Made by a program: the position numbers and the translations under genes. This document shows positions 15,168-59,724 of a stretch of 64,000 nt of DNA, piece by piece (positions within the stretch are counted from its first letter, which is position 1; each line of letters begins with the position of its first letter). Where the stretch lies: assembly GCA_030688135.1 (NCBI GenBank), contig JAUYIW010000067.1, forward strand, positions 23,982-87,981, in the 5' to 3' direction. The notes beneath the pieces were generated by a model. The model searched no databases. It saw nothing but the letters and a program-made list of their open reading frames with translations, and was not told the origin of the DNA. Source of the stretch: Candidatus Uhrbacteria bacterium. Lineage in GTDB: Bacteria; Patescibacteriota; Patescibacteriia; UBA9934.

Positions 15168-15188
15168 ATGCATACAACATACAAGAAT

Positions 15189-34819: not shown

Positions 34820-34948
34820 CTTGAATTACGAAACTCGCGATCTTTGCGTGAACGGGCTGTCGATCCCCGTGAACCCTACTAAAACGTAGGGAGAATGGGG
34901 GCGACGGGCGCCCGTGAACGCAAAGATCGCGAGTTTCGTAATTCAAAA
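34820..34948. repeat. GC-rich structured element, family A copy 2 (has a perfect 29-bp outer stem)
   Basis: CTTGAATTACGAAACTCGCGATCTTTGCG ... CGCAAAGATCGCGAGTTTCGTAATTCAAG encloses the GTGAACGGGCTGTCGATCCCCGTGAACCCTACTAAAACGTAGGGAGAATGGGGGCGACGGGCGCCCGTGAA core. Confidence 0.7.
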
Positions 34949-38074: not shown

Positions 38075-38203
38075 CTTGAATTACGAAACTCGATGAGATT
38101 TGCGTGAACGGGCTGTCGATCCCCGTGAACCCTACTAAAACGTAGGGAGAACGAGGGCGACGGGTGCCCGTGAACGCAAAGATCGCGAGTTTCGTAATTC
38201 AAG
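38075..38203. repeat. GC-rich structured element, family A copy 3
   Basis: CTTGAATTACGAAACTCGATGAGATTTGCGTGAACGGGCTGTCGATCCCCGTGAACCCTACTAAAACGTAGGGAGAACGAGGGCGACGGGTGCCCGTGAACGCAAAGATCGCGAGTTTCGTAATTCAAG. Confidence 0.7.
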
Positions 38204-40485: not shown

Positions 40486-40516
40486 CCAAATCTAAAAGCC
40501 GGCTCACTTGCCGGCT
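40486..40516. terminator. bidirectional terminator downstream of map
   Basis: AAAAGCCGGCTCACTTGCCGGCTTTT, a perfect hairpin flanked by A/T runs. Confidence 0.6.
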
Positions 40517-40525
40517 TTTAGATTG

Positions 40526-41308
40526 TTAAATTTTTATCTCAGGTTGTAGCGTTAATATCTCCGGTCCGTCTTCGCCGATAACAATCGTTACTTCATAGTG
40601 AGCCGCGTCTGATCCGTCAACGGTAGTAATTGTCCAGCCATCTTCCAATGTTTCAATATCGTCTGATCCGGTTGTAATCATTGGCTCAATAGCCAAACAC
40701 ATTCCAATTTTAATTTCCTGATCTGGGAATTTTTTTGTTCTGTAATTTGGAATATGAGGTTTTTCATGCACCTCATGCCCAACGCCATGCCCTACTAAGG
40801 CACGCACAATGCCATATTTTTTCAAATCGATTACATCTTCTACCGCCGCACCAATATCCGATATCATATTTCCAACTACTGCAGCATCGACGCCCACATA
40901 AAGCGCATCACGAGTTAAACGCATAAGTTCAAGCTTTTCTTTAGATACATTTCCAACCGGAACTGTAACAGCCATATCTACACACATATCTTCGTACCAA
41001 AGGCCAATATCTAGACCAACAATGTCTCCCTCTTCCAATGTTATATCTCGGCCACCAACACCATGAACAATCTCATTATTTCTTGAAATACAAAGAGTTG
41101 ATGGAAAAGGAGTACCTCCACCACTTCCAAATCCCTTAAATGAAGGCTTACCTCCACCCTCTAGAATCGCCTGCTCGGCAATAGAATCAAGTTCACGCAT
41201 AGTAACGCCAGGCTTTGTAGCATCAACCGCCGCTTGCAATGCACGTGACAGCAATGCGCCACCTTTGCGCATACTTTCGATTTCTTTAATTGTTTTTATA
41301 AGTGCCAT
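40526..41308 (-). CDS. map: methionine aminopeptidase, type I
   Basis: Pita-bread fold with metal ligands (D..D..H..E..E in the conserved order). 260 aa. Confidence 0.9.
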   Translation of the reverse strand: MALIKTIKEIESMRKGGALLSRALQAAVDATKPGVTMRELDSIAEQAILEGGGKPSFKGFGSGGGTPFPSTLCISRNNEIVHGVGGRDITLEEGDIVGLDIGLWYEDMCVDMAVTVPVGNVSKEKLELMRLTRDALYVGVDAAVVGNMISDIGAAVEDVIDLKKYGIVRALVGHGVGHEVHEKPHIPNYRTKKFPDQEIKIGMCLAIEPMITTGSDDIETLEDGWTITTVDGSDAAHYEVTIVIGEDGPEILTLQPEIKI

Positions 41309-41367
41309 ATGATTTTGCTAGTTACCTACTGATGTACTAATTTTTACTGATATACAGATCGAGTAGC

Positions 41368-41925
41368 TTATTCAGAAAAACTGAGTGCTTCGTTTACTCG
41401 TTCAGAGATCTCCTCTATAGTTCCAATGCCATTTATAATCTTCGCAATCCCCTGCTTTTGATATTCGTCGATAATAGGAGTCGTGTCTTCTTCGTAAATC
41501 TCAAGTCTACGAGCAATTTTCTCCGACGTGTCATCAACTCGCTTTTCAATTTCTGCACGTTTCAAAAGCCGGCGCATAGATTCATCATTAGGCACATCGA
41601 TTACCAAGAGCGCCGAAGGCTGATCGAACTGCTTGTATACTTCATATTGCGCACGATTCCTTGGATAGCCATCAAGAATATAACCAATCTGAGCGTCAGG
41701 TTGATCTAAACGTTTTTTCAAAACTTGAAGTGCAACATTGTCTGGTACTAATTCACCCTGATCAATAGTTCTCTTAATCTCTAACCCTAATTCACTTTGA
41801 GATTCAGTTTCATTACGTAAAAGCTGACCCATCGAAAGCGCTGGAATATTTAATTTTTCCGCTAATATGTTCGCCTGTGTCCCCTTGCCACTACCCTGAG
41901 GGCCAAGGATTAGAATTTTGTGCAT
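41368..41925 (-). CDS. adk: adenylate kinase (short, without Zn-lid)
   Basis: P-loop GPQGSGKGTQ, NMP-binding region, 185 aa. Confidence 0.9.
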   Translation of the reverse strand: MHKILILGPQGSGKGTQANILAEKLNIPALSMGQLLRNETESQSELGLEIKRTIDQGELVPDNVALQVLKKRLDQPDAQIGYILDGYPRNRAQYEVYKQFDQPSALLVIDVPNDESMRRLLKRAEIEKRVDDTSEKIARRLEIYEEDTTPIIDEYQKQGIAKIINGIGTIEEISERVNEALSFSE

Positions 41926-42271
41926 AATTCCGTATGCTAAAGTTTATTATTTATCGCCTTGATTGCTTGTAGTGCAAAGTTTAATATCTGGCGACGTAGT
42001 GTATTGATATTTGATATTTGCCAACACTACTGCAGGTCACGTAGGAACAATCCCTTGTGATTGTCAGCTCGCTTATAGTACACCTTAAGGCAGATTTTTC
42101 AATAGTATTAAAACGAGCCTCTTCCGGCTCGCTGTTATTGCTAATTGTTCGTAGATCGACCTGATAACACAATCGATCGTTCGTCTTACGGCTATGCGTT
42201 CATTGCTCGCTCTGCTCGCGTTCGTCTATCCGTGACACTCCGTAAATCATCCGTGACAATCCGTGCCTTAT

Positions 42272-43537
42272 CTACATGTCGTATCGCCTCATAGTAACTT
42301 GAGACTCAACCTGTTTAACTATATCAATTACAACCGATACAATGATAAGAATTGCAGCACCACCAACGATTAAATTAGGACTTCCTGTAACTTCCTGCAC
42401 AATAAGAGGCAAAACGGCTATTGCGCCAAGGAATGCTGCACCAGTCAAAAGGATTCGATTCTTAACCCAGTTTAGATACTTTGCTGTTTGTGCACCAGGT
42501 CGAATACCAGGAATGAAACCACCCTGCTTCTGCAAATTCTCAGCAACATTTTCTGGTTTAAAAATCACGCCCGCGTAGAAGAAAGTAAAGACAAAGACAA
42601 GTGTGAAATACAAGATTGCGTAAAACGCACTATTCCCAAATGCCTGCAACACAAATTCCGCTACACTGCGAATGAATTCAGTTCTGGCGTTCACAAAAAA
42701 CTGTGCGACAAGTGGAGGAAATACAACAACAGAAATCGCAAAGATAATAGGAATCATTCCTCCCATATTAACTCGAATCGGTAAATGCGAAGTTACTTTA
42801 GTGCTAGTGACTCCCTGCACTCCACGTGCATACTGTACTGGAATATTACGCTGTCCTTCGTTTACCACTACCACCGTAACCACGGTTACAATTGAAAGTA
42901 TAACGAACAATACAATGTTAAAAAGGTCTGCCGATGTGTATGTGGCCAATGTTCTTTGTATAAAGCTAGGAAAACCAGAAACAATGCCCGCAAGAATTAA
43001 AATAGAAATACCGTTCCCAACATTACGCTCGGTAATAAGTTCACCAAGCCACATTAAGAAAATTGTTCCAGCAGCCATTGATATGAGCGCAGTTATCATT
43101 GTAAAACCGCTTACATCGAAGCCTCCAATCGCTCCTGCCTGTTGGCCAAACAATTTAATAAGTCCAAATCCCTGCACAAATGCAAGCGGAGCAGTAGCAT
43201 AACGAGTCCATTTGTTAATTTTTTGTCTTCCCTGCTCTTCTTTTTGCAATTCTTCAAACTGCGGGAATATCATTCCAAGAAGCTGAAAAATAATCGAGCT
43301 AGTAATGTACGGTGCAACGCCAAGTGCAACAATAGAAAAATTCTCAAGCGTACCACCTGAGAAAACATTCAAGAGTCCGAGAAATTGGTTTGAACCGAGC
43401 ATTGAAGAGATTCCAGATGCGTCAATTCCAGGTACGGTAATATGAGCTGCAACACGGAAAATCGTAAGGGTAAACAAAATGAAAAGCAAACTATTACGAA
43501 GCTCCTTTACTTTAAATATCCGCTTTAGCATCTCCAT
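42272..43537 (-). CDS. secY: preprotein translocase subunit SecY
   Basis: 10-TM topology with conserved SecY motifs (GISILILAGIV, plug region). 421 aa. Confidence 0.92.
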   Translation of the reverse strand: MEMLKRIFKVKELRNSLLFILFTLTIFRVAAHITVPGIDASGISSMLGSNQFLGLLNVFSGGTLENFSIVALGVAPYITSSIIFQLLGMIFPQFEELQKEEQGRQKINKWTRYATAPLAFVQGFGLIKLFGQQAGAIGGFDVSGFTMITALISMAAGTIFLMWLGELITERNVGNGISILILAGIVSGFPSFIQRTLATYTSADLFNIVLFVILSIVTVVTVVVVNEGQRNIPVQYARGVQGVTSTKVTSHLPIRVNMGGMIPIIFAISVVVFPPLVAQFFVNARTEFIRSVAEFVLQAFGNSAFYAILYFTLVFVFTFFYAGVIFKPENVAENLQKQGGFIPGIRPGAQTAKYLNWVKNRILLTGAAFLGAIAVLPLIVQEVTGSPNLIVGGAAILIIVSVVIDIVKQVESQVTMRRYDM

Positions 43538-43549
43538 AATTTGAATATC

Positions 43550-43987
43550 CTATTTTGCTGAAACATTACCTCCAGCGGCTGTAATTTTTTCTACAGCTGA
43601 TTTTGAAACCTTACAACCCTTAACTTTAACTGCAATTCTTATTTCACCGTCTCCTAAAATCTTTACTCCATCCTTTTTTGATGCAATTAACTTTTTATCC
43701 AATAGTGTCTGTGGGCTTACTACATCATCCTTCTTAAATGCAGAATCAATACCTCCAAGGTTAACTACCGCTGGCTTGCCTGCTTGAGATTGAAACCCTC
43801 GCACCTTAGGAGTCGCAAGCATAAGCGAACGAAGCCCAAGACGCTTTAAACCGCCAACACCTGAACGAGACTTTTGTCCCTTATGTCCACGACCAGAAGT
43901 CTTACCACCAGTAAAACCACGCCCAAGGCGTTTCTTAGACTTCTTAGAACCTTCTGATGGTTTTAAATTATTTAGTGTTAATGGCAT
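43550..43987 (-). CDS. rplO: 50S ribosomal protein L15
   Basis: KKRLGRGFTGGKTSGRGHKGQKSRSG Gly/Arg-rich N-terminus. No L30 gene lies between S5 and L15, as is typical of CPR. Confidence 0.9.
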   Translation of the reverse strand: MPLTLNNLKPSEGSKKSKKRLGRGFTGGKTSGRGHKGQKSRSGVGGLKRLGLRSLMLATPKVRGFQSQAGKPAVVNLGGIDSAFKKDDVVSPQTLLDKKLIASKKDGVKILGDGEIRIAVKVKGCKVSKSAVEKITAAGGNVSAK

Positions 43988-44025
43988 ATATTTATATTAT
44001 CAATCTTTACAGTAAAACCATCAAC

Positions 44026-44616
44026 TTATTTATGATCGCTTACTGCGACTTCTTCCACAGCTTTTATGCTAACTGTCTTCACTTTTTTCGCACCCTCCTC
44101 ACCCTTCAAAGATCGCAACGCCACAAAAGTCGCTTTAGCATTATTTATTTTGCTGTCTGATCCTAAAATCTTTGAAACAGCATTTGGAACGCCAGCAAAT
44201 TCAAGTACCATTCGCACAGCTCCGCCAGACTTTAGTCCTGTACCTTCCGGAGCTGGTTTCAGCATTATCTCAGCTGCACCAAACTTACTAAGTATAGCAT
44301 GTGGAATAGTTCCGTTAATAAGTGGAACGGTTACAAGATTTTTCTTTGCCTGTTTAAAAGCCTTTTCTACAGAGGCTGCAACGTCTGCTCCTTTCGCAAT
44401 ACCCATTCCAACTCTACCTTTACGATCACCAATAATAAGACATGTTCGGAATCGCATGCGCTTTCCGCCTTTTGTGACACGCGTAACGCGAGCAAGCTCA
44501 AGAATACGTTGCTCAAATTCACGCTCTTCACGCTGTTTACCGCGGCGTCGAGGTCTTGCATTCTTTATGCTACCGCGTTTCTTTTTATCAGTGTTCTCTT
44601 CAAACATACAAATCAA
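44026..44616 (-). CDS. rpsE: 30S ribosomal protein S5
   Basis: dsRBD-like domain plus the S5 C-terminal domain (VTKGGKRMRFRTCLIIGD). Confidence 0.9.
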   Translation of the reverse strand: MICMFEENTDKKKRGSIKNARPRRRGKQREEREFEQRILELARVTRVTKGGKRMRFRTCLIIGDRKGRVGMGIAKGADVAASVEKAFKQAKKNLVTVPLINGTIPHAILSKFGAAEIMLKPAPEGTGLKSGGAVRMVLEFAGVPNAVSKILGSDSKINNAKATFVALRSLKGEEGAKKVKTVSIKAVEEVAVSDHK

Positions 44617-44979
44617 TTAAAACTTCAAACCTCCCTCACGTGCTGCGTCTGCTAATGCTTTAACGCTGCCATGATACTTATAAGGACCTCTGTCAAAAAC
44701 TACTGATTCGATACCAGCTGATACGGCTGCCTTTGCAACTTCTGCCCCAACTAGTGCTGCTACTTCTACCGGCTTCTTGCCATCTACCTTAAGCTTAATG
44801 TCTGAAGCTGAAGCAAGAGTTTTTCCAGCAGCGTCATCTATAACCTGAACTGAAATATGCTTAAGAGATTTAGAAACCGAAAGACGTGGGCGCTCTGCAG
44901 TGCCTCGAATCTTAGCACGCGTTCGTCTTGCACGAAGCGTAGTTGTCTTTCTCTTTTTTTGTAATTTTTTTGCTTCCAT
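44617..44979 (-). CDS. rplR: 50S ribosomal protein L18
   Basis: [18 protein letters not shown] ... [11 protein letters not shown]. Confidence 0.9.
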
Positions 44980-44984
44980 ACTTT

Positions 44985-45533
44985 TTAATCAGACTTAGCG
45001 GCCTTACCCACCTTGCGGCGAACCACTTCGTCAGTATAGCGGAATCCTTTACCCTTATAAGGTTCAGGTTTTTTTAGTCCTCGGATTTCTGCAGCGACAT
45101 GACCAACTAATGCAGTGTCTACTCCACTAATAGTAATAACGTTGCCTTCGACACTGGCGTTAATGCCATCAGGAATCTTAAACTCAACCTCGTGTGAAAA
45201 TCCTAGCTTCATAACAAGCTTTGAGCCCTGCAAGTTCATTCGAAAACCAACTCCATTTAGCTCCAATGCTTTTGACCAGCCCTCCGTAACACCATGAATC
45301 ATATTCGCTAAAAGTGCACGCATAGTCCCCCACATGGCAGCGTCTCCCTTAGGATCTTTAACGGTCACCTCTAGGAGATCTCCATTTTCACCGGTTTTCT
45401 TTTCAACCGTTGCACACTCATGCAGGACGAGTTCCAACTCGCCCTTAGGTCCCTTAACTTTTACAGTCTGGCCGTTAATTTCTACAGCAACACCGCTTGG
45501 GACTAATATGGATTTTTTTCCTATTCGTGACAT
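44985..45533 (-). CDS. rplF: 50S ribosomal protein L6
   Basis: MSRIGKK start, two alpha/beta domains, PEPYKGKG motif. Confidence 0.9.
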
Positions 45534-45678
45534 ATTATGTTAGATATTTGCTGCCTAGAAATTAGAGAATAGTTAATGTTGTGCTCAGAATTCTGTTTGA
45601 AAATAACACGCTTTTGCTACTTTCAGTTTCTACTATTTGTAACTAATCTCCATTCTCCAGACAGCTTCTTTCAATTCT

Positions 45679-46080
45679 TTAGAACACCTCGCAAATTACT
45701 TCACCACCCAGTCTTCGCTTCCTTGCGGCCACGTTTGTCATTAGACCGTTTGGAGTTGAAACAATAGTTAATCCAAATCCTGATCTTATAGTTCTCAAGT
45801 CGTCTGCGCTTGAATAAATTCTAGATCCGGGCTTACTGATTCTACGAACAGATGTAATCGCAGGCTCCTTACTTCTTGAATACTTCAAATGAATCCGAAG
45901 TGTCGGCTTTATAGCATTCTCTAGCTTCTCGGCCCTACTAACATAACCTTCTTGCTCTAAAATTTTCGCAATAGCGAACTTCATCTTAGAAAAAGGCATA
46001 TCAGCAACACCCTTCCGAATAACGGAAGCATTGCGAATGCGAGTTAACATGTCTGAAATTGGATCTGTCATCATATGCAT
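45679..46080 (-). CDS. rpsH: 30S ribosomal protein S8
   Basis: DPISDMLTRIRNA N-terminus. Confidence 0.9.
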   Translation of the reverse strand: MHMMTDPISDMLTRIRNASVIRKGVADMPFSKMKFAIAKILEQEGYVSRAEKLENAIKPTLRIHLKYSRSKEPAITSVRRISKPGSRIYSSADDLRTIRSGFGLTIVSTPNGLMTNVAARKRRLGGEVICEVF

Positions 46081-46179
46081 TAGAGATCGGCTGTTTGAAA
46101 ATTGGAAATTAGTAATGAGAAACTATCTTCAGCGATCTATTACTACTCTCTAATTTCCAAACAGCTCTTTTCTACATTT

Positions 46180-46365
46180 TTACCAGCTTGCTTTTTTTAT
46201 TCCGGGGATCTCACCCTTATTTGCTAATTCACGGAAACAAATACGGCACAGCCCAAACGCGCGCATAAAGAATCTGTTACGTCCGCAGTTCCAACATCTA
46301 TTCACCTTGCGGCTCATAAACTTTGGCTGCTTTTTTGACTTTGCAATTTGGTTCTTTGTTGCCAT
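46180..46365 (-). CDS. rpsZ: 30S ribosomal protein S14 type Z (zinc-binding)
   Basis: 61 aa with CxxC...CxxC (CWNCGR...CRIC). Confidence 0.9.
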
Positions 46366-46366
46366 A

Positions 46367-46912
46367 CTATTTCTCGTTTTTCTTAAATGGGAACTTTAGC
46401 GACTTAAACAGCGCCAAGCCTTCTTCCTTATTCTCTGCTGATGTCGTAATAGTTACTTGAAGGCCGTGAATCTTTTCGATTGCATCAACACTAATTTCTG
46501 GAAATGCAATATGCTCACGGAACCCGTAATTAAAGTTTCCTGCTGAATCAATCGCTGTTTCAGGGATTCCTCTAAAGTCACGAATTCGAGGGAAAACTAC
46601 ATTCACAAGCTTGCTAACAAAATCCCACATACGCTCACCTCGAAGCGTAACCATGGCTCCAACAACAAGTCCCTCACGAACTTTAAAGCCAGCAATAGAC
46701 TGTCGGGCTTTAGTTTCAACAGGCTTTTGTCCAGAAATACGCCCTAAAGTGTCTAGGATTGTTTCAATGAACTTTGGATCTTTCTTGCTACTTAGCCTGC
46801 TGTTTATCGTAACCTTGGTTATAGTTGGAGTATTCAAAAGACTCTTACGGCCAAGCTCTTCTTTAAGCGCCGGTGCAATACTTGTTTGAAATTGTTTTTT
46901 CAATTCGCTCAT
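46367..46912 (-). CDS. rplE: 50S ribosomal protein L5
   Basis: Conserved L5 core ([14 protein letters not shown]). Confidence 0.9.
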
Positions 46913-46913
46913 A

Positions 46914-47231
46914 CTATTCTAAATCTTCAAGACCTTTTTTAGTCTTAAGTATTCTAACTTTTGTCTTTTTTGAATCGCGCTCAATAAACTTATAAGCAAC
47001 ACGACCTTCGCCAGCCTTTCCAATAACTCGTACATTTGAAGCGTCTATTGGTGCAAAGTAATCAATACGTTGTCCAGCTGTGTTACCTCGTCGTTTTAGA
47101 TGTTTTACAGCCTTATTGATTTCTTCAATAACAACTTTATTGAGATTTGGAAAAACCTGCAGGACCTTTCCGGTCTTGCCTTTATCTTTACCTGCGGTAA
47201 CTCTTACATTGTCGCCAGTTTTAATCTTCAT
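46914..47231 (-). CDS. rplX: 50S ribosomal protein L24
   Basis: KIKTGDNVRVTAGKDKGKTGKV KOW motif. Confidence 0.9.
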   Translation of the reverse strand: MKIKTGDNVRVTAGKDKGKTGKVLQVFPNLNKVVIEEINKAVKHLKRRGNTAGQRIDYFAPIDASNVRVIGKAGEGRVAYKFIERDSKKTKVRILKTKKGLEDLE

Positions 47232-47240
47232 ATTATATTA

Positions 47241-47343
47241 CCAGGTTCCTACTGATGTACTGATAGCTACAGATTTACTAATTGGATTTAGCCGCTTGTC
47301 GATCTGTATATCTGTAATAATCTGTACATTAGTAGGGTCCTTG
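47241..47343. repeat. ~100-bp palindromic spacer element, family D copy 1 (L14/L24 gap)
   Basis: Terminal inverted repeats CCAGGTTCCTACTGATGTAC ... GTACATTAGTAGGGTCCTTG. Inner core CGATCTGTATATCTGTA. Confidence 0.65.
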
Positions 47344-47354
47344 TTTTTCGCATG

Positions 47355-47726
47355 TTATAGCACCTCTGGTGCAAGAGAGATAATTTTAGTATATCCTAGG
47401 CCTCGTAATTCTCGTGCAACTGGGCCGAAGATTCGAGTTCCCTTCATGTCTTTGTTGCCCTTGTCGATAATTACTGCCGCATTTTCTCCAAATCTTATGT
47501 AAGAGCCGTCTGGTCTTCGGATTTCTTTTTTTGTACGTACGAGAACTGCATGCACGATGTCACTCTTCTTAACATTACTGTGCGGAACAGCCTCTTTTAC
47601 CACAGCTGTAACAACATCCCCAAGACAAGCATAACGCTTCTTATACCCACCGAGTACCCTAATAACCATAAGCCTCTTGGCTCCAGTATTATCCGCTACG
47701 TTTATCATTGATAGATGCTGTAACAT
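47355..47726 (-). CDS. rplN: 50S ribosomal protein L14
   Basis: [17 protein letters not shown] start. Confidence 0.92.
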
Positions 47727-47734
47727 ATTTTATA

Positions 47735-48010
47735 TTAGTTCTCGATCTGTACTATCCTCCAGTGCTTATCTTTAGAAATTGGACGCGTTTCTTCAATAGT
47801 AACCTTATCGCCTATCTTTGCAGAATTCAGAGAATCATGCGCTTTAAACTTTTGACTTACAGTATAGCGCTTATTATATTTTGGATGAACCATAGCTCGC
47901 TGAACTCGAACAACGACGGTTTTGTCCATCTTATCTGATACTACCGTACCAATCAGGCGTCGGCGTTTTACATTGTTATTCTCTTCAGTCATACGATAAT
48001 TAGTTTTCAA
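47735..48010 (-). CDS. rpsQ: 30S ribosomal protein S17
   Basis: OB fold ([16 protein letters not shown]). Confidence 0.9.
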
Positions 48011-48209
48011 TCACTTTATCAGAGCCTTCTAACTGGCTAATCCTAGTCTCTATCCGTGCAATTAGCTTCTTTTTCTTCCTTACACTCCTCACATCCTTTA
48101 ACTGATTCACAGAAAGTTTCAACCTTAATTCATGCAAGCTTGAACGCTCTTCGCTAAGAATCTTCTTGAGCTCATTTGCGCTCTTTTTTTCAAGTTCTTT
48201 CCATTCCAT
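48000..48209 (-). CDS. rpmC: 50S ribosomal protein L29
   Basis: 69 aa, helical, L29-like ([13 protein letters not shown]). Confidence 0.85.
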
Positions 48210-48346
48210 ACCCGGTTGAACAACTTTGAATTAGTGTATGATATTAAGCTTTTTTTAGTAATTGGTCAAGTACCGAGCATTTCGCTCTATACCATTTTGC
48301 AATGACAACCTATGAAAAGGCTTTCCAAGGTCGTACTGCTGGCATA

Positions 48347-48760
48347 CTACTGTCTGATGACAAACTTAGTTTTGGTTGGTAGCTTATGCGCAGCAAGTCT
48401 AAACGCCTCGCGAGCCAAATCTTCCGTAACTCCATCCATTTCAAACATTACTGTACCAGCTCTCACAGGTGTCATGTAGTAATCGACTCCTCCCTTACCT
48501 TTACCCATCGGAGCTTCAGCACCATGACTAGTGATTGGATGATCTGGGAAAATACGAATCCATATCTTACCGCCGCGCTTCACATGCCTTGTCATTGCGC
48601 GACGAGCTGCCTCGATTTGACGTGCGGTTACCCACGACTCTGTTATAGCCTTCAAGCCAAAGCTTCCGAAAGCAACTTCGGTCTTTTGCGAAGCCACACG
48701 ATCGCCTTTTGTGCGTCGCTTGTGCAACTTGCGGTATTTCATTTTCTTAGGCATCAACAT
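48347..48760 (-). CDS. rplP: 50S ribosomal protein L16
   Basis: [16 protein letters not shown] start and the RMGKGKG motif. Confidence 0.92.
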
Positions 48761-48781
48761 ATGATCTTTTTCAAGTCGTGT

Positions 48782-49477
48782 TTATTTCTTTTGATGTGCT
48801 ACAGAGCCGGAAGCCGATTCTTTTTTTTCATCTTCTTCTTCAAAGATTTCTCCCTTATAAATCCAAACCTTTATTCCTATAGTACCGTAAATCGTTCTAG
48901 CTGGAATACGAGCGAAATCAACGTCGGCTCGTAGATTGTGAAGAGGGATACTGCCTTCCGAAACCGTTTCGCTTCTTGCAATTTCTGCACCATTCAAACG
49001 GCCAGCAATCGTGATTTTAACTCCCTTTGCTCCGCCTTTCATTACTTTTTCTATCGCCATTTTCATTGAACGTCGAAATGGAAGTCGCTTTTCAATTTCT
49101 TGCGCTATCTGTTGCCCTACAATTCTCGAAGACAACGCTGGCTTAGAAACTTCTTGAATATTGATATTAATATTTGTGCGACGTCCTCTGAAAAACTTAT
49201 CTTTAATCTTTTTCTTTAATTCTTCTGCTCCTGCGCCGGCTCTACCAATAATGAAACCAGGTTTAGCAGATGCAATAGTTACATTTATAGTATCGGCTGT
49301 ACGATCGATATACACAGCGTCAACGCTAGCTTCTTTCAATTGCTTTTTCAGAAAATCACGAAGCTTAACATCTTCCTCAAGATAAGAAACAAAATTCTTG
49401 CGGGGAGCAAACCACTTGGAGTCCCAGCTATATATAGTTGACAGTCGGAAAACTTTTGGATGAATCTTTCGTCCCAT
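48782..49477 (-). CDS. rpsC: 30S ribosomal protein S3
   Basis: MGRKIHPKVFRL start, KH domain, and an acidic/Lys-rich C-terminal tail. Confidence 0.92.
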   Translation of the reverse strand: MGRKIHPKVFRLSTIYSWDSKWFAPRKNFVSYLEEDVKLRDFLKKQLKEASVDAVYIDRTADTINVTIASAKPGFIIGRAGAGAEELKKKIKDKFFRGRRTNININIQEVSKPALSSRIVGQQIAQEIEKRLPFRRSMKMAIEKVMKGGAKGVKITIAGRLNGAEIARSETVSEGSIPLHNLRADVDFARIPARTIYGTIGIKVWIYKGEIFEEEDEKKESASGSVAHQKK

Positions 49478-49492
49478 ATATAATATTGAATC

Positions 49493-49936
49493 TTATTTAC
49501 TATCTTTTACGCTTTTTGGCTTAGACGCTACAACCTTGTCTTCTTTTACAACCTTATCACTAGCGCCCTTTGCAACAACAGCCTTCTTTGCTTTTCCTTT
49601 TTCTTCTTTTACGTCTACACCAATCGTAATATGTGACATTCTATAGCGAATCGTAGCCGCTGTTCCACGAGCTCGTGGGGCAAATCTTTTAATAGTTGGC
49701 CCCTCATTAACTGAAGCTAATGATACGAACAGCTTTTCCGTATCGATATCAAAGTTATTCCTTGCATTAGCTATAGCAGAATTAAGAGTCTTAAGCACTG
49801 GCTTTGCAGCTGCCTTCTTGCTAAACATAAGCTGTCTGCGAGCATCCTCAATCGGTAAGCCACGCACAAGATCAACCACAAGGCGAGTCTTGCGTGGTGA
49901 CATATGAATAAATTTTGCAGTAGCTTTAACTTGCAT
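49493..49936 (-). CDS. rplV: 50S ribosomal protein L22
   Basis: Conserved L22 core with a Lys-rich C-terminal extension. Confidence 0.88.
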   Translation of the reverse strand: MQVKATAKFIHMSPRKTRLVVDLVRGLPIEDARRQLMFSKKAAAKPVLKTLNSAIANARNNFDIDTEKLFVSLASVNEGPTIKRFAPRARGTAATIRYRMSHITIGVDVKEEKGKAKKAVVAKGASDKVVKEDKVVASKPKSVKDSK

Positions 49937-49948
49937 ATTTTTCTAGCA

Positions 49949-50245
49949 TTACCTCTTTGGAGGTGAAGAAGGAGGAGCGGCATCAATTGTCTTACCCCCA
50001 TGTCTAATAAATCGACGTGTTGGCGAAAACTCTCCAAGTTTATGGCCAACCATACTTTCCTGGACCTTTATCTGAATAAAATCTTTTCCGTTATGCACGC
50101 CAAAAGTCAACCCAACCATCTGTGGAGTTATCGTACTTGAACGTGCCCATGTTTTAACGACAGTTTTGTCGTTAGGCATCAATTTTGATACCTTTTCCAT
50201 GAGCTTTAGATCAACGTATGGTCCTTTTTTAAGACTTCTAGACAT
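49949..50245 (-). CDS. rpsS: 30S ribosomal protein S19
   Basis: [12 protein letters not shown] start, GHKLGEF motif. Confidence 0.92.
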
Positions 50246-50257
50246 AGGTTTCGATTA

Positions 50258-50339
50258 CCAGGCTCCTACTAATGTACCAATTGTCACTGATGTACAGATC
50301 CGTAAATCTATATTAATCAGTATATTAGTAGGAACCTGG
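50258..50339. repeat. palindromic spacer element, family D copy 2 (L2/S19 gap)
   Basis: CCAGGCTCCTACTAATGTAC ... TATATTAGTAGGAACCTGG. Confidence 0.65.
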
Positions 50340-50352
50340 TAGTTTTTTTGTG

Positions 50353-51189
50353 TTAACGTTTCTTACTCTTACGTCTTGATATAATGAATTTATTTGTAAC
50401 TTTGTTGCGACGAGTCTTAACTCCCAGCGCCGGCTTTCCTGTTGGGGTCTTAGGACGTTTAAGTCCAATCGGGTTCCTACCTTCACCTCCTCCATGAGGG
50501 TGATCGACTGGGTTCATGGCCTTACCTCGTACAGTTGGTCGAATGCTACGATGACGCGTGCGTCCTGCCTTTCCCCATCGAACAAGTCGCCAATCAGGAT
50601 TTGATACATTACCAATCGTTGCCATGCACGTCTTTGGGACTGTCCTTACCTCGCTTGAAGGCAATTTAAGCGTTGCATAATCGCCTTCTACCGCCATTAG
50701 CGTTGCGCCAGTACCAGCTCCACGAACTAGCTGTCCGCCCTTACCTGGCTGAATTTCAATATTAATGACCTGAATTCCAAGAGGAATCTTCTCAAGAGGA
50801 AAACGATTTCCAACTTGTGGTTCGCTAAACTCTCGTGATGTTATGATCTTTGAACCAACCTTCAAACCTTGTGGCGCAAGGATGTATCGCTTTTCTCCGT
50901 CAGCATATACAACTAATGCAATTCGTGCCCCACGATTTGGATCGTACTCAATAGTACTAACGGTCGCTTCAATATCAAGTTTATCAAACTTCCAATCTAT
51001 GATTCTGATTCCGCGCTTTACTCCACCCCCTCGGTGACGAACCGCTATTTTTCCATTTGCTCGTCCTGCCTGTTGCTTTCTATGCTTCAGAAGTGGCTTA
51101 TACGGACTCTTCGACGTTACGTCATCAAAAGTCTGAACGCTTGATTTGCGCCTTCCGGGTGTAGTTGGTTTGTGGACTCGTATTCCCAT
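50353..51189 (-). CDS. rplB: 50S ribosomal protein L2
   Basis: Conserved L2 C-terminal block NPVDHPHGGGEG. Confidence 0.95.
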   Translation of the reverse strand: MGIRVHKPTTPGRRKSSVQTFDDVTSKSPYKPLLKHRKQQAGRANGKIAVRHRGGGVKRGIRIIDWKFDKLDIEATVSTIEYDPNRGARIALVVYADGEKRYILAPQGLKVGSKIITSREFSEPQVGNRFPLEKIPLGIQVINIEIQPGKGGQLVRGAGTGATLMAVEGDYATLKLPSSEVRTVPKTCMATIGNVSNPDWRLVRWGKAGRTRHRSIRPTVRGKAMNPVDHPHGGGEGRNPIGLKRPKTPTGKPALGVKTRRNKVTNKFIISRRKSKKR

Positions 51190-51207
51190 ATTTATTGATA
51201 TACTAGT

Positions 51208-51299
51208 ACCCTACAGAAGTACTGATTGTGACCGATTTATTTATAATCCGACTTCAGATCTGTGAATCAGTACCAATCAGTACGTCAGTAGGTTCCCTG
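51208..51299. repeat. palindromic spacer element, family D copy 3 (L23/L2 gap)
   Basis: ACCCTACAGAAGTACTGATTG ... CAATCAGTACGTCAGTAGGTTCCCTG. Confidence 0.6.
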
Positions 51300-51306
51300 T
51301 TTCTCT

Positions 51307-51759
51307 TTATACTCCATCAAATACATCTATCGTTGTTCCATTTGGTAGCTTTATAAGCGCTTTTTTTACATCACTTCGCTTACCGCTCACTCTACCAAAA
51401 TTCAATCGCTTGCCTCGTACGTTAATTATATTAACGCTCTCTGGAATAACGTGATACATTTCTTTAAATGCCTGTTTCACGGCAACGCGATTTGTATTTG
51501 GATGGACTCGGAAAACCATCACTCCCTTATCAGACAACTGAGCAGTCTTTTCTGAAACTATTGGTTCCAAGATTGTATTCAGTGACCTTGCGCTCGCTGA
51601 AATTACCATCTTCTTTTCTTTGGTTTCAACCTTCTTTGCTACAGGCTTCTTTACAGCATCCTTCTCATCCTTAACTTCCGCAACATCAACAAGCTGCTTT
51701 GTTACGCCAGTAGATTCAGTCTGTTCATTCTTCTTTTTGAATTTATCGAAAAAATTCAT
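51307..51759 (-). CDS. rplW: 50S ribosomal protein L23 with Lys-rich N-terminal extension
   Basis: The C-terminal ~95 aa match L23 (VSEKTAQLSDKGVMVFRV...). An extra ~50-aa N-terminal region is Lys/Glu-rich. Confidence 0.85.
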   Translation of the reverse strand: MNFFDKFKKKNEQTESTGVTKQLVDVAEVKDEKDAVKKPVAKKVETKEKKMVISASARSLNTILEPIVSEKTAQLSDKGVMVFRVHPNTNRVAVKQAFKEMYHVIPESVNIINVRGKRLNFGRVSGKRSDVKKALIKLPNGTTIDVFDGV

Positions 51760-51763
51760 AAAT

Positions 51764-52396
51764 TTATCTTGCGTAATTCTTTATGATCTGTTCAATTGCA
51801 GCCTTTGAAGCTAACACATACGGATATTTTGCAATATCGCGAACGTTCAAACTTCCAGCGCTAATTGTTTCAGTATCCTTAACATTGCGAGCTGCACGCA
51901 CAAAAGCCTTCTCATCTGCAGTTGTAACTATAAGTGCCTTTTTTCCAGCGCCCGGAAGACTATTTCGCATTTGCGCAACTGTCTTGGTCTTCATATCTTC
52001 CGCGCTGATATCTTCTATAGCAACTAGTAAATCTGAAGCTACTTTATCGGACAAAATCATTGCTAATGCACCCTTTCTTGCCTTCTTGTTTATTTTCTTT
52101 CCAAAAACTCTTAAAATAGTTGGACCAAATGTTACTCCACCACCAATCCAAATAGGCGATCGACTTGAGCCGTGACGTGCCCTACCTGTTCCTTTTTGCT
52201 TCCATGGCTTGCGTCCGCCACCTCGTACCTCACTCCTATCTTTCGTGTTGGCGATACGAATTCGTCCGTTTTCAACCTGAGCGATAATAGCCTCATGAAC
52301 AAGTGAAGATTTTACTTTCACGCCAAACAACCCTTCCGGCAAATCCATTGTGCCAGACTTTGAGCCATCTATTTTATATACATTTACTTGTGCCAT
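51764..52396 (-). CDS. rplD: 50S ribosomal protein L4
   Basis: Conserved L4 core (KPWKQKGTGRARHGS). Confidence 0.92.
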   Translation of the reverse strand: MAQVNVYKIDGSKSGTMDLPEGLFGVKVKSSLVHEAIIAQVENGRIRIANTKDRSEVRGGGRKPWKQKGTGRARHGSSRSPIWIGGGVTFGPTILRVFGKKINKKARKGALAMILSDKVASDLLVAIEDISAEDMKTKTVAQMRNSLPGAGKKALIVTTADEKAFVRAARNVKDTETISAGSLNVRDIAKYPYVLASKAAIEQIIKNYAR

Positions 52397-53007
52397 ATAT
52401 CTCCCATTGAAGTTGTTATCACTACAAAGCTTCCTCGACTTCCGGGAACCGCTCCCTTAATCGCTATAATATTATTAGCTTTGTCGACATTAACTATTTC
52501 TAGATTTTTTACGGTAACTTGGTCTCCACCCATTCTGCCACCCATTCTAGTTCCTTTAAACACTCTCTGAGGACCGCCAGCACCAATGGATCCTGGCATT
52601 CTAAGCTGATCTTTGTGTCCATGAGAAGCAGGTCCTCCGTGGAATCCATGACGCTTTACAACTCCCTGAAACCCTTTACCTTTTGAAATTCCACTCACGT
52701 TAACAGACTCACCAGCCTCAAAGGTGTCCGCGCAGATCTTCTGACCTTTTTCAAAAGTTTCACCTTCAGAAAGTTCAAATTCACGAACATATGCAAAATT
52801 TCCAAGATCTTTCCAGTCTTTCTTTTGAGGTTTATTTACTGACTTTGATGTACCGTAACCAAGAACAGCGGCCTGCCTTCCTGCAGGATTAGTTCTCACC
52901 GTTGTAACAGTACATGGACCAGCCTCTATTAGAGTAACCGGAACAACGCCTCCGTCTTCACGGAAAAATTGAGTCATTTCTAATTTTCTTCCAAGAATAG
53001 CTTTCAT
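52384..53007 (-). CDS. rplC: 50S ribosomal protein L3
   Basis: MKAILGRKLEMTQ start, FKGTRMGGRMGG motif. Confidence 0.92.
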   Translation of the reverse strand: MKAILGRKLEMTQFFREDGGVVPVTLIEAGPCTVTTVRTNPAGRQAAVLGYGTSKSVNKPQKKDWKDLGNFAYVREFELSEGETFEKGQKICADTFEAGESVNVSGISKGKGFQGVVKRHGFHGGPASHGHKDQLRMPGSIGAGGPQRVFKGTRMGGRMGGDQVTVKNLEIVNVDKANNIIAIKGAVPGSRGSFVVITTSMGDIWHK

Positions 53008-53436
53008 ATTTCTTCTAGCTGGCTAATGAAAAACCAGAAGTCGTTAAACATCATTCAGATATTCAACAGCTTCTAGTCTAAGTAAAACAACATTTGTACT
53101 TAGATTTTTTTTGATTTCGAATGATTCCTTTCTTAATTCCTCTTGAATCGTCGGGGAGGGTATCCTTCGTGTGCTTAACGATAACTTTAAACTATAACTA
53201 TAACTTTGGATGTGAGAAATTTCGATATTCTTGAATTCCTTAGTTATGGTGATTGTAAATGTTACGTCCTCCGTAATGCACGGACCTAACTCCTCGGTTC
53301 AAATGGGAATGTTTGAGTCACAAGCTGGAAATTGCTAGCCGGAAATTACTTTCGACCTTCTCCGGCCGTGAGAACTGAGCCGTATTCGGCACAGCATCTT
53401 ACAGCCGGAAACTCTCAACTTGTAACTCGTTATTAT

Positions 53437-53784
53437 TTACATCTTAATTTCGATGTCGACGCCTGCTGGCAGATTGAGTGTCATCAATGAATCAACAGTG
53501 CCTTCTGATGGGCTAAGAATGTCAATGAGACGCTTATGAATCCTCATTTCATACTGGTCTCGAGACGTCTTATGAACAAAAGTTGAACGGTTCACAGTAA
53601 AACGACGCTTTTCGCTAGGAAGTGGTATTGGCCCTAAAACCGTTGCACCACTTCGCTTTGCTGTCTTGATGATGGTATCAGCAGCAGAGTCGATTATTTT
53701 GTGATCGTACGCGCGAATTTTAATTCTAATTCGCTGCTTCGCTTCCTCCTTAGCATTTTCAGTTGTTGTGTTGGCGTCTGCCAT
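53437..53784 (-). CDS. rpsJ: 30S ribosomal protein S10
   Basis: [30 protein letters not shown]. Confidence 0.92.
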
Positions 53785-53849
53785 AGAAATGTACGAAAAA
53801 GTTCAGAACGCAAGCGAGGAAGGGGCCAAGCCCCTTCCTCGATGCATTT

Positions 53850-55034
53850 TTATTCAATAATCTTTGTAACAACACCAGCTCCAACGGTTCGTCCACCTTC
53901 ACGAATAGCAAATCTCATCTCTTCTTCGATTGCAATTGGCTGGATGAGTCCTACTTCAACGTTTACAGTGTCGCCAGGCATAACCATTTCAACTCCTTCA
54001 GGAAGTGAAATAATATCACCTGTAACGTCAGTTGTTCGAATGTAAAACTGAGGCTTATAACCCTTGAAGAATGGCTTATGACGTCCACCTTCTTCCTTTG
54101 TTAGGGCATAAATCTTTGCTTCAAACTTGGTGTGAGGCTTAACAGTTCCAGGAGTAGCAAGCACCATTCCGCGCAATACGTCATCTTTCTTGATGCCGCG
54201 GAGGAGAATACCTGCATTGTCGCCTGCCATACCTTTGTCTAGCAACTTGTTAAACATTTCGATTCCAGTAACAACTGTCTTTGCAGTGTCGCGAATACCA
54301 ACTATTTCAACATCATCGTTCAAGTTGATTATACCGCGCTCAATACGACCAGTAACAACAGTTCCACGGCCTTCAATTGAGAAAACGTCCTCAATAGGCA
54401 TTAGGAATGACTTTTCTGTGTCACGTACTGGCTGTGGAATGTATTCATCAAGAGCCTTCAATAAATCCTTAATTGGCTTTATCGCCTCTTCATCAGTTGG
54501 ATTCTCTGCTGCCTTAAGAGCAGAACCACGAATAATTGGAGTTTCATCTCCTGGGTACTCGTACTGCTTCAAAAGATCTCGGATTTCCTCTTCAACAAGG
54601 TCAATAAGCTCAGGATCGTCAACCATGTCAACCTTATTTAGGAAAACAACGATTGTAGGCACACCAACCTGACGAGCAAGAAGAATGTGCTCACGAGTCT
54701 GAGGCATTGGACCATCAGCTGCTGAAACCACTAAGATCGCACCGTCCATCTGGGCGGCACCAGTGATCATATTCTTAACATAGTCAGCGTGACCCGGACA
54801 ATCTACATGGGCGTAGTGACGAGTTGCTGATTCGTATTCAACGTGAGACGTTGAGATTGTAATACCGCGCTCTCTTTCCTCAGGAGCGTTATCGATTTGG
54901 TCAAACGCTTTTTTCTGTGAGTCTGGAGAAAAAAGGCCGGAAAGTGCTGCAGTAAGCGTGGTCTTACCATGGTCAACGTGACCAATAGTTCCTACGTTTA
55001 CGTGCGGCTTTGATCGATCAAACTGTTCTGCCAT
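53850..55034 (-). CDS. tuf: elongation factor Tu
   Basis: [18 protein letters not shown] and NKVD GTPase boxes. 394 aa. Confidence 0.97.
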
Positions 55035-55306
55035 ATAATTAATGACTTATTGTTTGCGGTTCAAGACAAATTTGCCTTAAAACCTAATAAAATTATGATT
55101 TACGTAAGTGACGAGAGTATAGCAAAAGCCTGAAAATATTGCAAGTCCCATGCGGTGAATTAGTCCTCAGCCTATCATCATAACTATATTAAACATGTTC
55201 TTTGCTAAGCTTAGCTAATTTGTTAATTCTGAAGCCTATCTATAAACAACTAGATTTTCGGAAGTAAGGAAAAGGTTTTTTGAAATAGATTTTGCATTTT
55301 CACGAT

Positions 55307-55702
55307 CTACTCAATCGGCTCAAGATAGAACCGCTCCTCTCCAGGCTCAAAATCACTATCCTTAGGTTCAATTCCCTCTTCAACTGCCTTTTCAGCTTCA
55401 AACTCTTCCATTGCTGTGGTAGTCATTGCATTCAGCTCATCAATTGATTGAATTGGATCGTCGTCCTCTTCATCAAAACCTCCCTCCCATTCCATCGCTG
55501 GCATCGCGCTACCATTAAACGGTATTTCCTCTATTTCATCATAGTCATTGCCAGTCCATTCAAAATCTTCTTCAGCGCCCAAAAGGCATTCATACTGATC
55601 GACAGGCATTATTACAACCGGCTCGCCTTCACCAGCAACTATAAGTGTATCGCCTGTGCGTTGTGCTAAACGAATTAAACGCTGTAGTTGATTATTCTCC
55701 AT
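55307..55702 (-). CDS. hypothetical acidic protein inserted between fusA and tuf
   Basis: About 132 aa starting at MENNQLQRLIRLAQRTGDTLIVAGEGEPVVIMPVDQYECL. The C-terminal half is extremely Asp/Glu-rich. The N-terminal part of the longer 55987 ORF is Arg-rich and overlaps a repeat, so it is excluded. Confidence 0.4.
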   Translation of the reverse strand: MENNQLQRLIRLAQRTGDTLIVAGEGEPVVIMPVDQYECLLGAEEDFEWTGNDYDEIEEIPFNGSAMPAMEWEGGFDEEDDDPIQSIDELNAMTTTAMEEFEAEKAVEEGIEPKDSDFEPGEERFYLEPIE

Positions 55703-56088
55703 AGTTTTAGACAAACATTGATTATGTCGCCATCTTAACGCATCTGTAGAAGGAGTCAAGAGGTGGTAGATTGGCAATGGTAAATTAGCTTTTGGCCACT
55801 TGCCATTAGCTCGTGCAACCCATCCATATATCTGTACTGCAACCTGCCCTGAGCGAAACGATCCTGAGCCTGTTGAAGGAGAGTGAAGTCGAAGGGTATA
55901 TCCGTAACGAAATAAAAAAACTCCAGACTTTGTCAATCTCATGGGGGCGACCTTTAGGTCTCCCGCAAGCGGACGGCATACTGCCACAGGTGACTCGGGC
56001 AGTCCGCCTTCAATGAACAGTGGCGGAAATATCGTCCATACACTTAACTACCATTCACATGTCCTAGAGACGTGAAATCTCTTTAGGA

Positions 56089-56104
56089 CCTTTCGTGCGA
56101 AGGG
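56089..56104. repeat. short palindromic repeat CCTTTCGTGCGAAGGG plus TCCTAAGATT (copy 3)
   Basis: Same family as 35075 and 35387. Confidence 0.6.
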
Positions 56105-56283
56105 TCCTAAGATTGGTAGACGCCTTACTTTTGAGGATGAATGAGAGCAGTAACAAAAAGGCGAGCCTTTCGACCCGCCTTTAAATCTCTATTTAACCCC
56201 CTAACTTCCCTCAAACTCTCTCACATTGCTCGCGTTGGTCGATCTGTAGTTCCGTATAGTCTGTAGGTCTGTAACGATGTACC

Positions 56284-58368: not shown

Positions 58369-58567
58369 ACGGGGGAAAAATTTATTATCGAGTAGCCTTA
58401 GTTTATTAACGGTTTGCGAAATTTATTACCAGTATGCTAACGTTTATTAGCTGGCGACTTGTGTTTATTGCCTCGATCGGTACATCTGTATATCTGCACA
58501 CGATCCGTACATCTTCGATCCCTTGCTATCAAAATGAGTAAATGCGATACCTGCCGCACGAAGCTCA

Positions 58568-59038: not shown

Positions 59039-59133
59039 ATTTATTTAGCAATGTTTGCTTCATTAGACTCTTAGCTTCATTGGCTTCAACTGCGGTTCCC
59101 CGGCAAGCTATAAGCTAAAAGCTATCAGCTAGT

Positions 59134-59553: not shown

Positions 59554-59724
59554 AGCTGTATCTGAATTCTGATATTTGAATATCCGAGTTTAAATAAAAA
59601 TAGATGGCCGAAATGTACCATAGCCACTAAATTTCGTCAATATTTGGTTACTCACACAACTAAATCGGCAACACGGCTCCAATTTAGCAAAAAAGCCTTA
59701 AATTACAGGGGCTGGTAGCTTTGT

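Follow-up and report, generated by a model that had tools for sequence, protein, structure and literature searches.

Few gene arrays of bacteria are as tightly packed and as conserved as the S10/spc cluster, and the genomes of the Candidate Phyla Radiation (CPR) are small. Why, then, are several genes of this cluster separated by ~100-bp palindromes in a CPR bacterium? The question arises from a 64-kb stretch of a metagenome-assembled genome (MAG) of Candidatus Uhrbacteria, which is referred to here as the window, holds the S10/spc/str cluster on its minus strand, and is the basis of all window counts below. Its L2 protein, with a 100% hit, assigns it to Candidatus Uhrbacteria. The original prediction, made from the letters of the stretch, had noticed three such palindromes between ribosomal protein genes and a half-copy before map, and had considered them as mobile elements, as ribosome-binding or translational-operator sites, or as RNA-processing hairpins. 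We find six loci in the 64 kb, four full palindromes and two single arms. The elements are 82–107 nt in length, lie entirely within non-coding gaps between co-directional genes, and probably belong to a dispersed family of non-coding palindromic repeats, similar to miniature inverted-repeat transposable elements (MITEs) or to REPINs, that inserted into the intercistronic junctions of this Uhrbacteria lineage.

The elements, followed by weaker arm-like arrays, are located in the window as follows.

47241–47343: full palindrome with four TACNGAT units and a CCAGG/CAAGG tip in each arm, in the 123-nt gap (47232–47354) between rplN (L14) and rplX (L24); arms E = 2.8e-12 and 5.2e-12.
50258–50339: full palindrome, the most compact copy, with nearly no loop, in the 107-nt gap (50246–50352) between rplB (L2) and rpsS (S19).
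~51203–51299: full palindrome, the most degenerate copy, in the 117-nt gap (51190–51306) between rplW (L23) and rplB (L2).
41318–41360 (profile match 41317–41362), plus strand: single arm in the gap between adk and map (41309–41367); E = 3.8e-11.
8541–8647: full palindrome of a second subfamily, between two plus-strand genes, a LytR_cpsA_psr gene and der.
58474–58526 (profile match 58478–58528), minus strand: single arm of the second subfamily, in the gap between rpsG (S7) and fusA (58369–58567); E = 9.3e-9.
42220–42272, minus strand: diverged arm-like array of four CACGGAT units at the start of the gap between secY and adk; weak (E = 0.12).
56235–56286, minus strand: diverged arm-like array of TACAGAC/TACGGAA units directly downstream of fusA, complementary to 26253–26291; weak (E about 1–5).
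26253–26291: weak, diverged arm-like array.

A profile built from the arms detected exactly 10 arms in the 64 kb (E = 1e-8 to 3e-12), which make up four inverted pairs and two singles. The sequence CCTACTGATGTAC, allowing up to two mismatches, occurs seven times as compared with 0.59 expected, and none of 100 shuffles reached seven. Similarly, the inner core CGATCTGTATATCTGTA, allowing up to three mismatches, occurs seven times as compared with 0.13 expected from the shuffle control (at 8604, 41345 on the minus strand, 47300, 58474, and 58482, and more weakly at 55820 and 56240). Chance similarity and assembly artefact are excluded for the elements by these shuffle controls and the profile E-values, by two contigs of a separate (Logan) assembly of run SRR13727534, which reproduce three of the elements at 100% identity, and by homologous copies present in many other samples. 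The three palindromes of the ribosomal operon were therefore found where they had been predicted, with the start of the L23–L2 copy moved from 51208 to ~51203, and the half-copy before map was verified as a single arm. The recurrence of the inner core was also borne out, although its earlier coordinates 47291 and 41340 were a few bases off (47300 and 41345). The core reported upstream of der is present, but the full palindrome there had been overlooked. An arm indeed lies at the core reported at 58478; it is a left arm whose tip faces the stop codon of S7, the upstream gene, and not the downstream fusA.

Each arm consists of four TACNGAT heptamers, whose starts are 8, 10, and 8 nt apart, and of a CCAGG or CAAGG tip. 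Aligned from the tip inward, the arm reads (T)ACCAGGnnCC-TACnrAT-GTACnGAT-nnn-TACnGAT-nTACnGAT, and amounts to a tandemly duplicated 18-nt di-unit, which is plainest in the copy L198 from Portnoybacteria. The second arm is an array of the same kind on the opposite strand, and a variable loop of 0–27 nt lies between the two. The single arm before map has its tip toward the map start codon, and its inner end touches the adk stop codon. Window copies are 63–76% identical in pairwise comparison and fall into two subfamilies. The copies in the ribosomal operon and the map arm have the tip CCAGGnnCCTAC, and in the der copy and the fusA arm the tip is GCAAGGnnCC and the sequence ahead of GATGTAC is shorter by one base; the right der arm and the fusA arm share 83% identity. 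Within any copy, both arms belong to one subfamily, which indicates that copies were made as whole palindromes.

To what extent the palindrome is conserved as a palindrome was evaluated by arm-to-arm comparison in 14 copies, the four from the window and 10 from metagenomes. The heptamer cores (TAC and GAT) match at 91% within a copy and at 88% between copies for all 14, and at 86% and 80%, respectively, for the window copies. In the latter, the variable N of TACNGAT matches in 5 of 16 cases within a copy (0.32 between copies), and the linkers match in 8 of 20 (0.44 between copies). Neither N nor the linkers of the window copies match beyond the level of chance, which leaves a stem that is broken every 3 bp. 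As the cores are kept and these other positions are not, the symmetry comes wholly from conserved units arranged in inverted order, without compensatory pairing. What is conserved is the sequence and orientation of the unit, and not base pairing.

The full window copies nevertheless fold well as sense RNA (-32 to -40 kcal/mol, z = -4.6 to -8.3), and the two single arms at map and fusA have no significant fold. Sense and antisense energies are -32.3 and -39.6 kcal/mol for the L14–L24 copy, -39.9 and -39.8 kcal/mol for L2–S19, -37.8 and -29.2 kcal/mol for L23–L2, and -34.2 and -45.3 kcal/mol for der; summed over the 10 metagenome copies, they are -398 kcal/mol (sense) versus -386 kcal/mol (antisense). 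A test for structured RNA thus found no asymmetry between the strands and no complementarity above chance at the variable positions, and no Rfam family matched the elements, neither at the gathering score nor at E-values up to 5. The polarity of the arms, on the other hand, is fixed. In 15 of 15 distinct palindromes, TACNGAT reads inward from each tip, and the opposite arrangement was not truly seen, the apparent exception (L204) being a self-complementary overlap. Fixed polarity along with conserved, oriented short repeats resembles transposon ends or oriented protein-binding arrays. A function as a hairpin alone would allow both polarities, and the occurrence of only one speaks against such a function.

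Evidence on how the elements arose comes from the orthologous junctions in relatives, namely five contigs from three Uhrbacteria lineages, which are distant (L2 77–81% identical to that of the window). Genes adjoin almost directly in these relatives. The L23–L2 junction is 1–2 nt (117 nt in the window), L2–S19 is 3–8 nt (107 nt), L14–L24 is 4–9 nt (123 nt), and adk–map is 1 nt (59 nt). Gene starts and lengths agree between the window and the relatives, and therefore the gaps in the window are truly non-coding. Long gaps that lack the motif, which the original prediction had named as evidence that would count against it, were not seen at these junctions. The Uhrbacteria relatives (67 kb) and 80 other species (1.24 Mb) contained neither an arm nor an array of three heptamers, and a scan of a genome collection by L2 yielded relatives of at most 64% identity, none of which has the motif. 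Orthologous junctions of 1–9 nt in three related lineages mark the elements as lineage-specific insertions. The best explanation is that they inserted after the lineage split from its closest sequenced relatives, and we hold this to be probable as part of the MITE- or REPIN-like interpretation as a whole. No target-site duplication is visible at the copies, and only one copy has TA on both sides; given the age of the copies, any duplication could since have decayed.

The family is not limited to this genome. When public metagenomes were scanned for a degenerate 28-nt pattern of the arm, 70 loci were obtained, and the profile confirmed arms in 70 of 70. The same pattern had 0 matches in 2.9 million viral contigs; a 17-nt pattern gave 94 single matches in a first viral scan, which we took as chance for so short a pattern. 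The metagenome loci take two forms, inverted pairs that fill gaps and long arrays in which the whole four-unit arm is repeated directly in tandem. Gene junctions filled by palindromic pairs occur in Portnoybacteria/Parcubacteria. One inverted pair lies between rpsF and ssb of Candidatus Portnoybacteria (its SSB is 99% identical to an NCBI protein so named), and further pairs lie upstream of groES, pyrH, queA, and a gene for cysteine desulfurase. In this wider set, 0 to 34 nt separate the element from the start codon. Palindromes of TACNRAT units occur between S6 and ssb in L198, L254, and L257 and between ssb and S18 in L252 and L257. Their presence is patchy, with an ssb–S18 gap of 6 nt in L256 versus 66–100 nt in its relatives. 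Other gaps of the same Parcubacteria contain palindromes of the same design, made from the units ACGCAAA, GCCACTAG, TTAACAT, and CTACGG.

The ages of copies appear to differ. In L244/L205 the palindrome is perfect even at N and in the linkers, which is what a young copy should look like. N is identical in all eight units of several metagenome copies but not in the window copies, and therefore the window copies are older. The direct tandem arrays have periods of 41–45, 75, or 160 nt and up to 15 copies of the arm, and lie in ordinary intergenic DNA. At least one contig with such an array, L181, is from Bacteroidota, as the best named matches of its RF3 are to Flavobacteriales and Chitinophagales (~74% identity).

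Two sets of observations were made alongside on these metagenome contigs. In the S6–ssb–S18 gaps of L252–L257 and L198, which are 66–140 nt in length, arms are made of three to four tandem copies of a 7–10-nt unit. The unit varies by gap and by genome (TACNRAT, ACGCAAA, GCCACTAG/CTAGTCGC, TTAACAT, CTACGG, or ACTTGTTC), and at the S6–ssb junction alone it is TACAGAT, TACCAAT, or ACGCAAA across relatives. At ssb–S18 of L254, one and the same base distinguishes each of the three units in one arm from those in the other, which suggests homogenization within each arm. Tandem arm arrays were found on the Bacteroidota-like contigs L181, L196/L234, L197, L208, L222, L243, and others, and no common neighboring gene was seen on these. 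In L196/L234 and in L207, a two-arm array faces one of 10–15 arms across ~300 nt.

The conserved motif that had been noted before the ATGs of map, rplX, rpsS, and rplB is the outer tip of the element. The tip ends 9 nt ahead of the ATG in rplX and in map, 12 nt in rpsS, and 13 nt in rplB (8–13 nt in five cases), and its sequence varies between copies (GTAGGAAC, GTAGGAGC, GTAGGGTA, GTAGGTAA, and CTCGGTAC). An AGGA-like stretch is located 17–22 nt from the ATG, and the same tip sequence recurs as its reverse complement directly after the upstream stop codon. The 8–13 nt between an element and the ATG are rich in A and U, as is the sequence before other starts of this genome. A Shine-Dalgarno sequence is missing from most genes of the cluster (40500–59800), and an A/T-rich stretch precedes their starts, as in ATAAAT ATG. 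A test for a Shine-Dalgarno sequence, i.e., a purine-rich stretch 5–10 nt before the start, was negative for the elements, with the 3' end of the 16S rRNA lying outside the window. Intrinsic termination is likewise not indicated. The sense-strand hairpins are followed by TAATATAAT, TAATCGAAACCT, and TATATCAATAAAT, with no U-tract, and in the three ribosomal copies T-runs after the hairpin are confined to the antisense strand. A terminator scan found none within the elements, but such a scan is blind to long loops and hairpins; terminator-like sites number 26 in the window as compared with 14.7 expected, and this excess does not involve the elements. Promoter-like sites in the window are at the level of shuffled sequence.

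These observations may be assembled as follows. Short, non-coding sequences with terminal inverted repeats, dispersed at six loci in 64 kb and present or absent at orthologous sites (59–123 nt in the window versus 1–9 nt in relatives), share these features with MITEs. A MITE-like origin, which was one of the possibilities first raised, gains support from these short orthologous junctions, from arms matched by subfamily, and from recurrence in other Patescibacteria. The heptamer arrays would serve as recognition sites for a trans-acting protein, most likely a recombinase or transposase that copies the element. After insertion, the element would be co-transcribed with the operon, and it may be tolerated for several reasons. 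It has no apparent terminator on the sense strand; folding back would return the upstream stop and the downstream start to within ~20 nt of each other and could preserve translational coupling; and it would leave 8–13 nt of unstructured, A/U-rich sequence before the ATG in a genome largely devoid of Shine-Dalgarno sequences. Targeting of the ribosomal protein operon is not supported statistically. Five of the six copies lie in the cluster, but the cluster holds 30 of the 67 junctions of our working gene list (binomial p about 0.07, not significant).

Several points weigh against this interpretation. Neither an autonomous element with the same ends nor a gene flanked by the same arms was found in the window or among the 70 metagenome loci, and the ends of the window's two transposase-like genes are of another kind. 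A target-site duplication is, as stated, not visible. The non-core positions are saturated and the cores kept; if the copies came from one burst, this would signify purifying selection in place, and hence a host function and not selfish DNA. The recurrence of TACNRAT palindromes in S6–ssb–S18 of several Parcubacteria, whose SSBs are 70–78% identical to that of L198, could reflect conservation instead of repeated insertion. Finally, the evidence from this genome comes from 64 kb.

That the elements are ribosome-binding or translational-operator sites of the downstream genes, as had been proposed, is very improbable. The position of the tip at 8–13 nt from five ATGs and the AGGA-like stretch in some tips accord with such a role, and in one of two gaps of the Parcubacteria contig L257 the tip GTAGGATGACACT even places AGGA 7 nt before the ATG (the other gap has GTAAGATGACACT). 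However, the AGGA-like stretch in the window is too distant from the ATG and is not conserved, the tip is repeated in reverse complement after the stop codon, and in the fusA copy it is at the opposite end of the gap. Nearly all other genes of the cluster do with neither the motif nor a Shine-Dalgarno sequence, and for an element that fills a short gap the position of the tip is trivial. Hairpins that function in the polycistronic mRNA, either as RNase III processing sites or as stabilizing stem-loops, are a less remote but still doubtful explanation. Correia elements, REP, and other known palindromic repeats have such a role, the full copies fold well and sit between co-directional genes, and unrelated hairpins are also present in the S8–L6, S14–S8, and S10–L3 gaps of the same operon. 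The earlier suggestion of RNA-processing hairpins nonetheless goes unsupported, in that the antisense strand folds as well as or better than the sense strand in two of the four window copies and equally well in sum for the 10 others, the stem lacks compensatory changes, only one polarity is seen, the two single arms do not fold, and relatives do without these hairpins.

The most serious competitor, which we still regard as unlikely, is that the elements are native or domesticated cis-regulatory arrays, i.e., DNA or mRNA sites for a conserved host protein that controls or organizes growth genes (those for ribosomal proteins, EF-G, Der, Map, SSB, and GroES), and that oligomeric binding accounts for the palindrome. 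Small repressors of the ribbon-helix-helix class bind arrays of 7–8-bp repeats. The cores are conserved (80–91%) and N and the linkers are random even across unrelated genomes and phyla, which fits such sites, as does the fixed polarity, and the same holds for the selection in place that a single burst would entail. The genes downstream are suggestive as well, being der, map, rplX, rpsS, and rplB in the window and ssb, rpsR, groES, pyrH, and queA elsewhere, and TACNRAT palindromes recur in the S6–ssb–S18 operon of at least four divergent Parcubacteria. However, the closest Uhrbacteria relatives have no element at any of the window junctions compared, and the genes therefore function in its absence. 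The spacing from the start codon varies widely, and the neighboring gaps with their other units cannot be explained by one sequence-specific regulator. In Bacteroidota, as many as 15 arms stand in tandem in ordinary intergenic DNA, and no candidate binding protein was identified.

Beyond these readings, the elements could conceivably represent one family of a more general, undescribed class, although we put this forward only tentatively. The class would comprise fold-back elements with arms of tandem 7–10-nt units, situated in the intercistronic junctions of Patescibacteria core operons. Unit sequences would turn over fast and the design would be kept, with the TACNGAT module conserved across phyla. 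Such a pattern would point to a conserved protein that reads the arrays or to a mechanism that generates or renews them in place, and the host might use the arrays to organize the expression of operons that lack Shine-Dalgarno sequences.

If the elements are MITE- or REPIN-like, as we think probable, the presence of four to five ~100-bp repeats within the S10/spc cluster means that even such a cluster can be colonized, and the elements constitute a natural experiment on the intercistronic tolerance of an operon without Shine-Dalgarno sequences. Four oriented heptamers per arm, an unusual design found from Patescibacteria to Bacteroidota with pairing unconstrained, imply a protein that recognizes them. 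If this protein is a recombinase, the elements would define a new family of mobile elements for the lineage, whose mobile elements are, to our knowledge, little described. If it is a host factor, they would constitute a new regulatory or organizing signal in organisms that cannot as yet be cultured on their own.

Other gaps in and around the cluster also contain repeats. The S8–L6 gap (45534–45678, 145 nt) and the S14–S8 gap (46081–46179, 99 nt) have hairpins of a second family, unrelated to the elements, whose arms (AGCTGTYTGGARA...TAG) are common to both gaps, and these junctions are 1–3 nt in the relatives L082/L083 and L084. The S10–L3 gap (53008–53436, 429 nt) has long hairpins (-122 kcal/mol) and differs from the other gaps in being present in relatives as well, where it measures 322 nt (L084) and 218 nt (L085). 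It has no match in Rfam and may be a conserved leader or regulatory RNA. The remainder of the S7–fusA gap has five TAATAAA-containing repeats of ~20 nt (TAATAAAC) at 58380–58460, upstream of fusA, where Tandem Repeats Finder (TRF) reports a period of 20 at 58400–58449, and a related sequence, AATAAACTTTAGCATACGG, is directly upstream of adk (41930–41960). An open reading frame (ORF) at 55307–55987, between fusA and tuf, has a weak match to PhdYeFM antitoxins, and a gene with the same weak match is found at the same position in the relatives L085/L086.

Elsewhere in the window, gaps of at least 45 nt number 47 and total 11.7 kb, or 18% of its length. A 127-nt repeat family is present in three copies (24884–25010, 34821–34947, and 38077–38203) of 84–96% identity, which are palindromic with arms GCCCGTGAACGCAAAGATCGCGAGTTTCGTAATTCAAG. 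The 1.2 kb at 21831–23036, to which no gene was assigned, contain a 192-nt tandem repeat (2.2 copies, 96% matches, 22360–22776) and a 48-nt tandem repeat (2.3 copies, 100% matches, 22090–22199). Inverted repeats of 122 nt (29372–29493 and 30847–30968, 86% complementary, 1.35 kb apart) enclose tRNA-Leu, one of two tRNA-Met genes, and a 188-amino acid ORF without a Pfam match. Additional intergenic arrays of short units, some of them palindromic, are located at 10028–10090, 13581–13638, 23961–24018, 16034–16062, 32042–32114, and 59105–59131; their units are ATCCTAA/ATCTAAA, AAGTCTGA, TCAAAT/ATTTGA, and AAGCTAT. A generic detector of short-period arrays missed the TACNGAT arms, whose spacing alternates between 8 and 10 nt, and was not used for statistics.

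Two genes for transposase-like proteins are present in the window. The product of a RAYT-like Y1 transposase gene at 15189–15848 (region 15026–15915) has an HUH-like motif, NHFHIL, and the motif YIHLNP. Against Pfam Y1_Tnp its score is 32 bits, which exceeds the cut-off; against the NCBIfam model of the REP-associated tyrosine transposase it reaches 43 bits, short of the cut-off of 80. The gene is flanked by a perfect 17–22-nt palindrome (GCAACCCTWAGGGTTGC / GTGCAACCCTWAGGGTTGCAC), with two copies on each side and none elsewhere in the window. The second gene, at 18552–19550, encodes an IS1249/IS256-like transposase (Mutator family) and has 31-nt inverted repeats at 18467–18497 and 19529–19559 that are 90% complementary, such that 18467–19559 looks like a complete small insertion sequence in a CPR genome.

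How do the elements compare with known systems? Closest in behavior are the REP, BIME, and REPIN sequences of Enterobacteria and Pseudomonas with their RAYT proteins, which are likewise short, non-coding, intergenic palindromes, often lie within operons, and form hairpins of ~100 nt as inverted doublets; a RAYT-like gene is also present in this window. However, REP units are single GC-rich palindromes of 20–40 nt with a GTAG head, and the arms here consist of four AT-rich heptamers in which pairing of N and linkers is unconstrained. GTAG is found in one subfamily only, inside unit 1; neither the second subfamily nor the metagenome consensus has it. A RAYT gene of such a system would be flanked by the same repeats, but the window gene is flanked by GCAACCCTWAGGGTTGC and not by TACNGAT arms. 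We considered RAYT as the mobilizing enzyme and found no link to these arms. Correia elements of Neisseria (CREE/NEMIS) and ERIC/IRU of enterobacteria are similar as MITE-like palindromes of ~100–150 bp that lie between genes, are co-transcribed, and are present or absent among relatives. Correia elements are characterized by terminal inverted repeats of 26 bp, a duplicated TA target, and an IHF site, and their processing by RNase III is documented. Here, in contrast, the whole arm is an array of heptamers, no duplication is visible, and there is no sign of selection for RNA folding.

The organization of the arm recalls two kinds of protein-binding array. Transposon ends with multiple transposase-binding sites, such as those of Tn7, Mu, IS21, and the IS607 family, and eukaryotic foldback elements seem alike in having inverted ends with several short repeats that are oriented to the tip and kept while the intervening sequence is free. 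Those repeats are usually 12–22 bp and flank coding DNA, whereas no transposase gene was found between or beside the arms. Operators and centromere sites built from heptads or octads (those of the omega repressor of pSM19035, the ParG/ParR sites, and the met boxes of MetJ) may be likened to the arms in their 7–8-bp direct and inverted units with a period of ~8 bp, but they lie at promoters or plasmid partition loci and their cognate protein is defined, whereas the elements lie inside operons and are mobile or patchy.

Other candidates were set aside. TIGR arrays also occur in CPR bacteria and alternate short repeats with short variable stretches. Their units comprise two 8–12-nt repeats and two 9-nt spacers, in direct arrays of 5–15 units that adjoin a Tas gene with a Nop domain (PMC12045711). 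Some window arms read CUGAUGU...CUGA, similar to box C/D, but these letters depend on the variable N. We rejected a TIGR array on architecture, as only one base per heptamer varies here and the arrangement is palindromic; no match to the Nop domain in Pfam was found among the 40 window proteins scanned. The cyanobacterial LexA box AGTAC-N4-GTACT contains TACAGATGTAC and was the only overlap with the motif strings in the literature searched, which did not yield them in this context. It was rejected because the units here are direct repeats in fours with a first half-site of TTAC/CTAC. The DnaA box, dif, Ter, and IHF sites were rejected by eye, their consensus sequences being different. The elements thus combine the behavior of known kinds of palindromic intergenic repeat with a new anatomy, in which each arm is an oriented array of heptamers.

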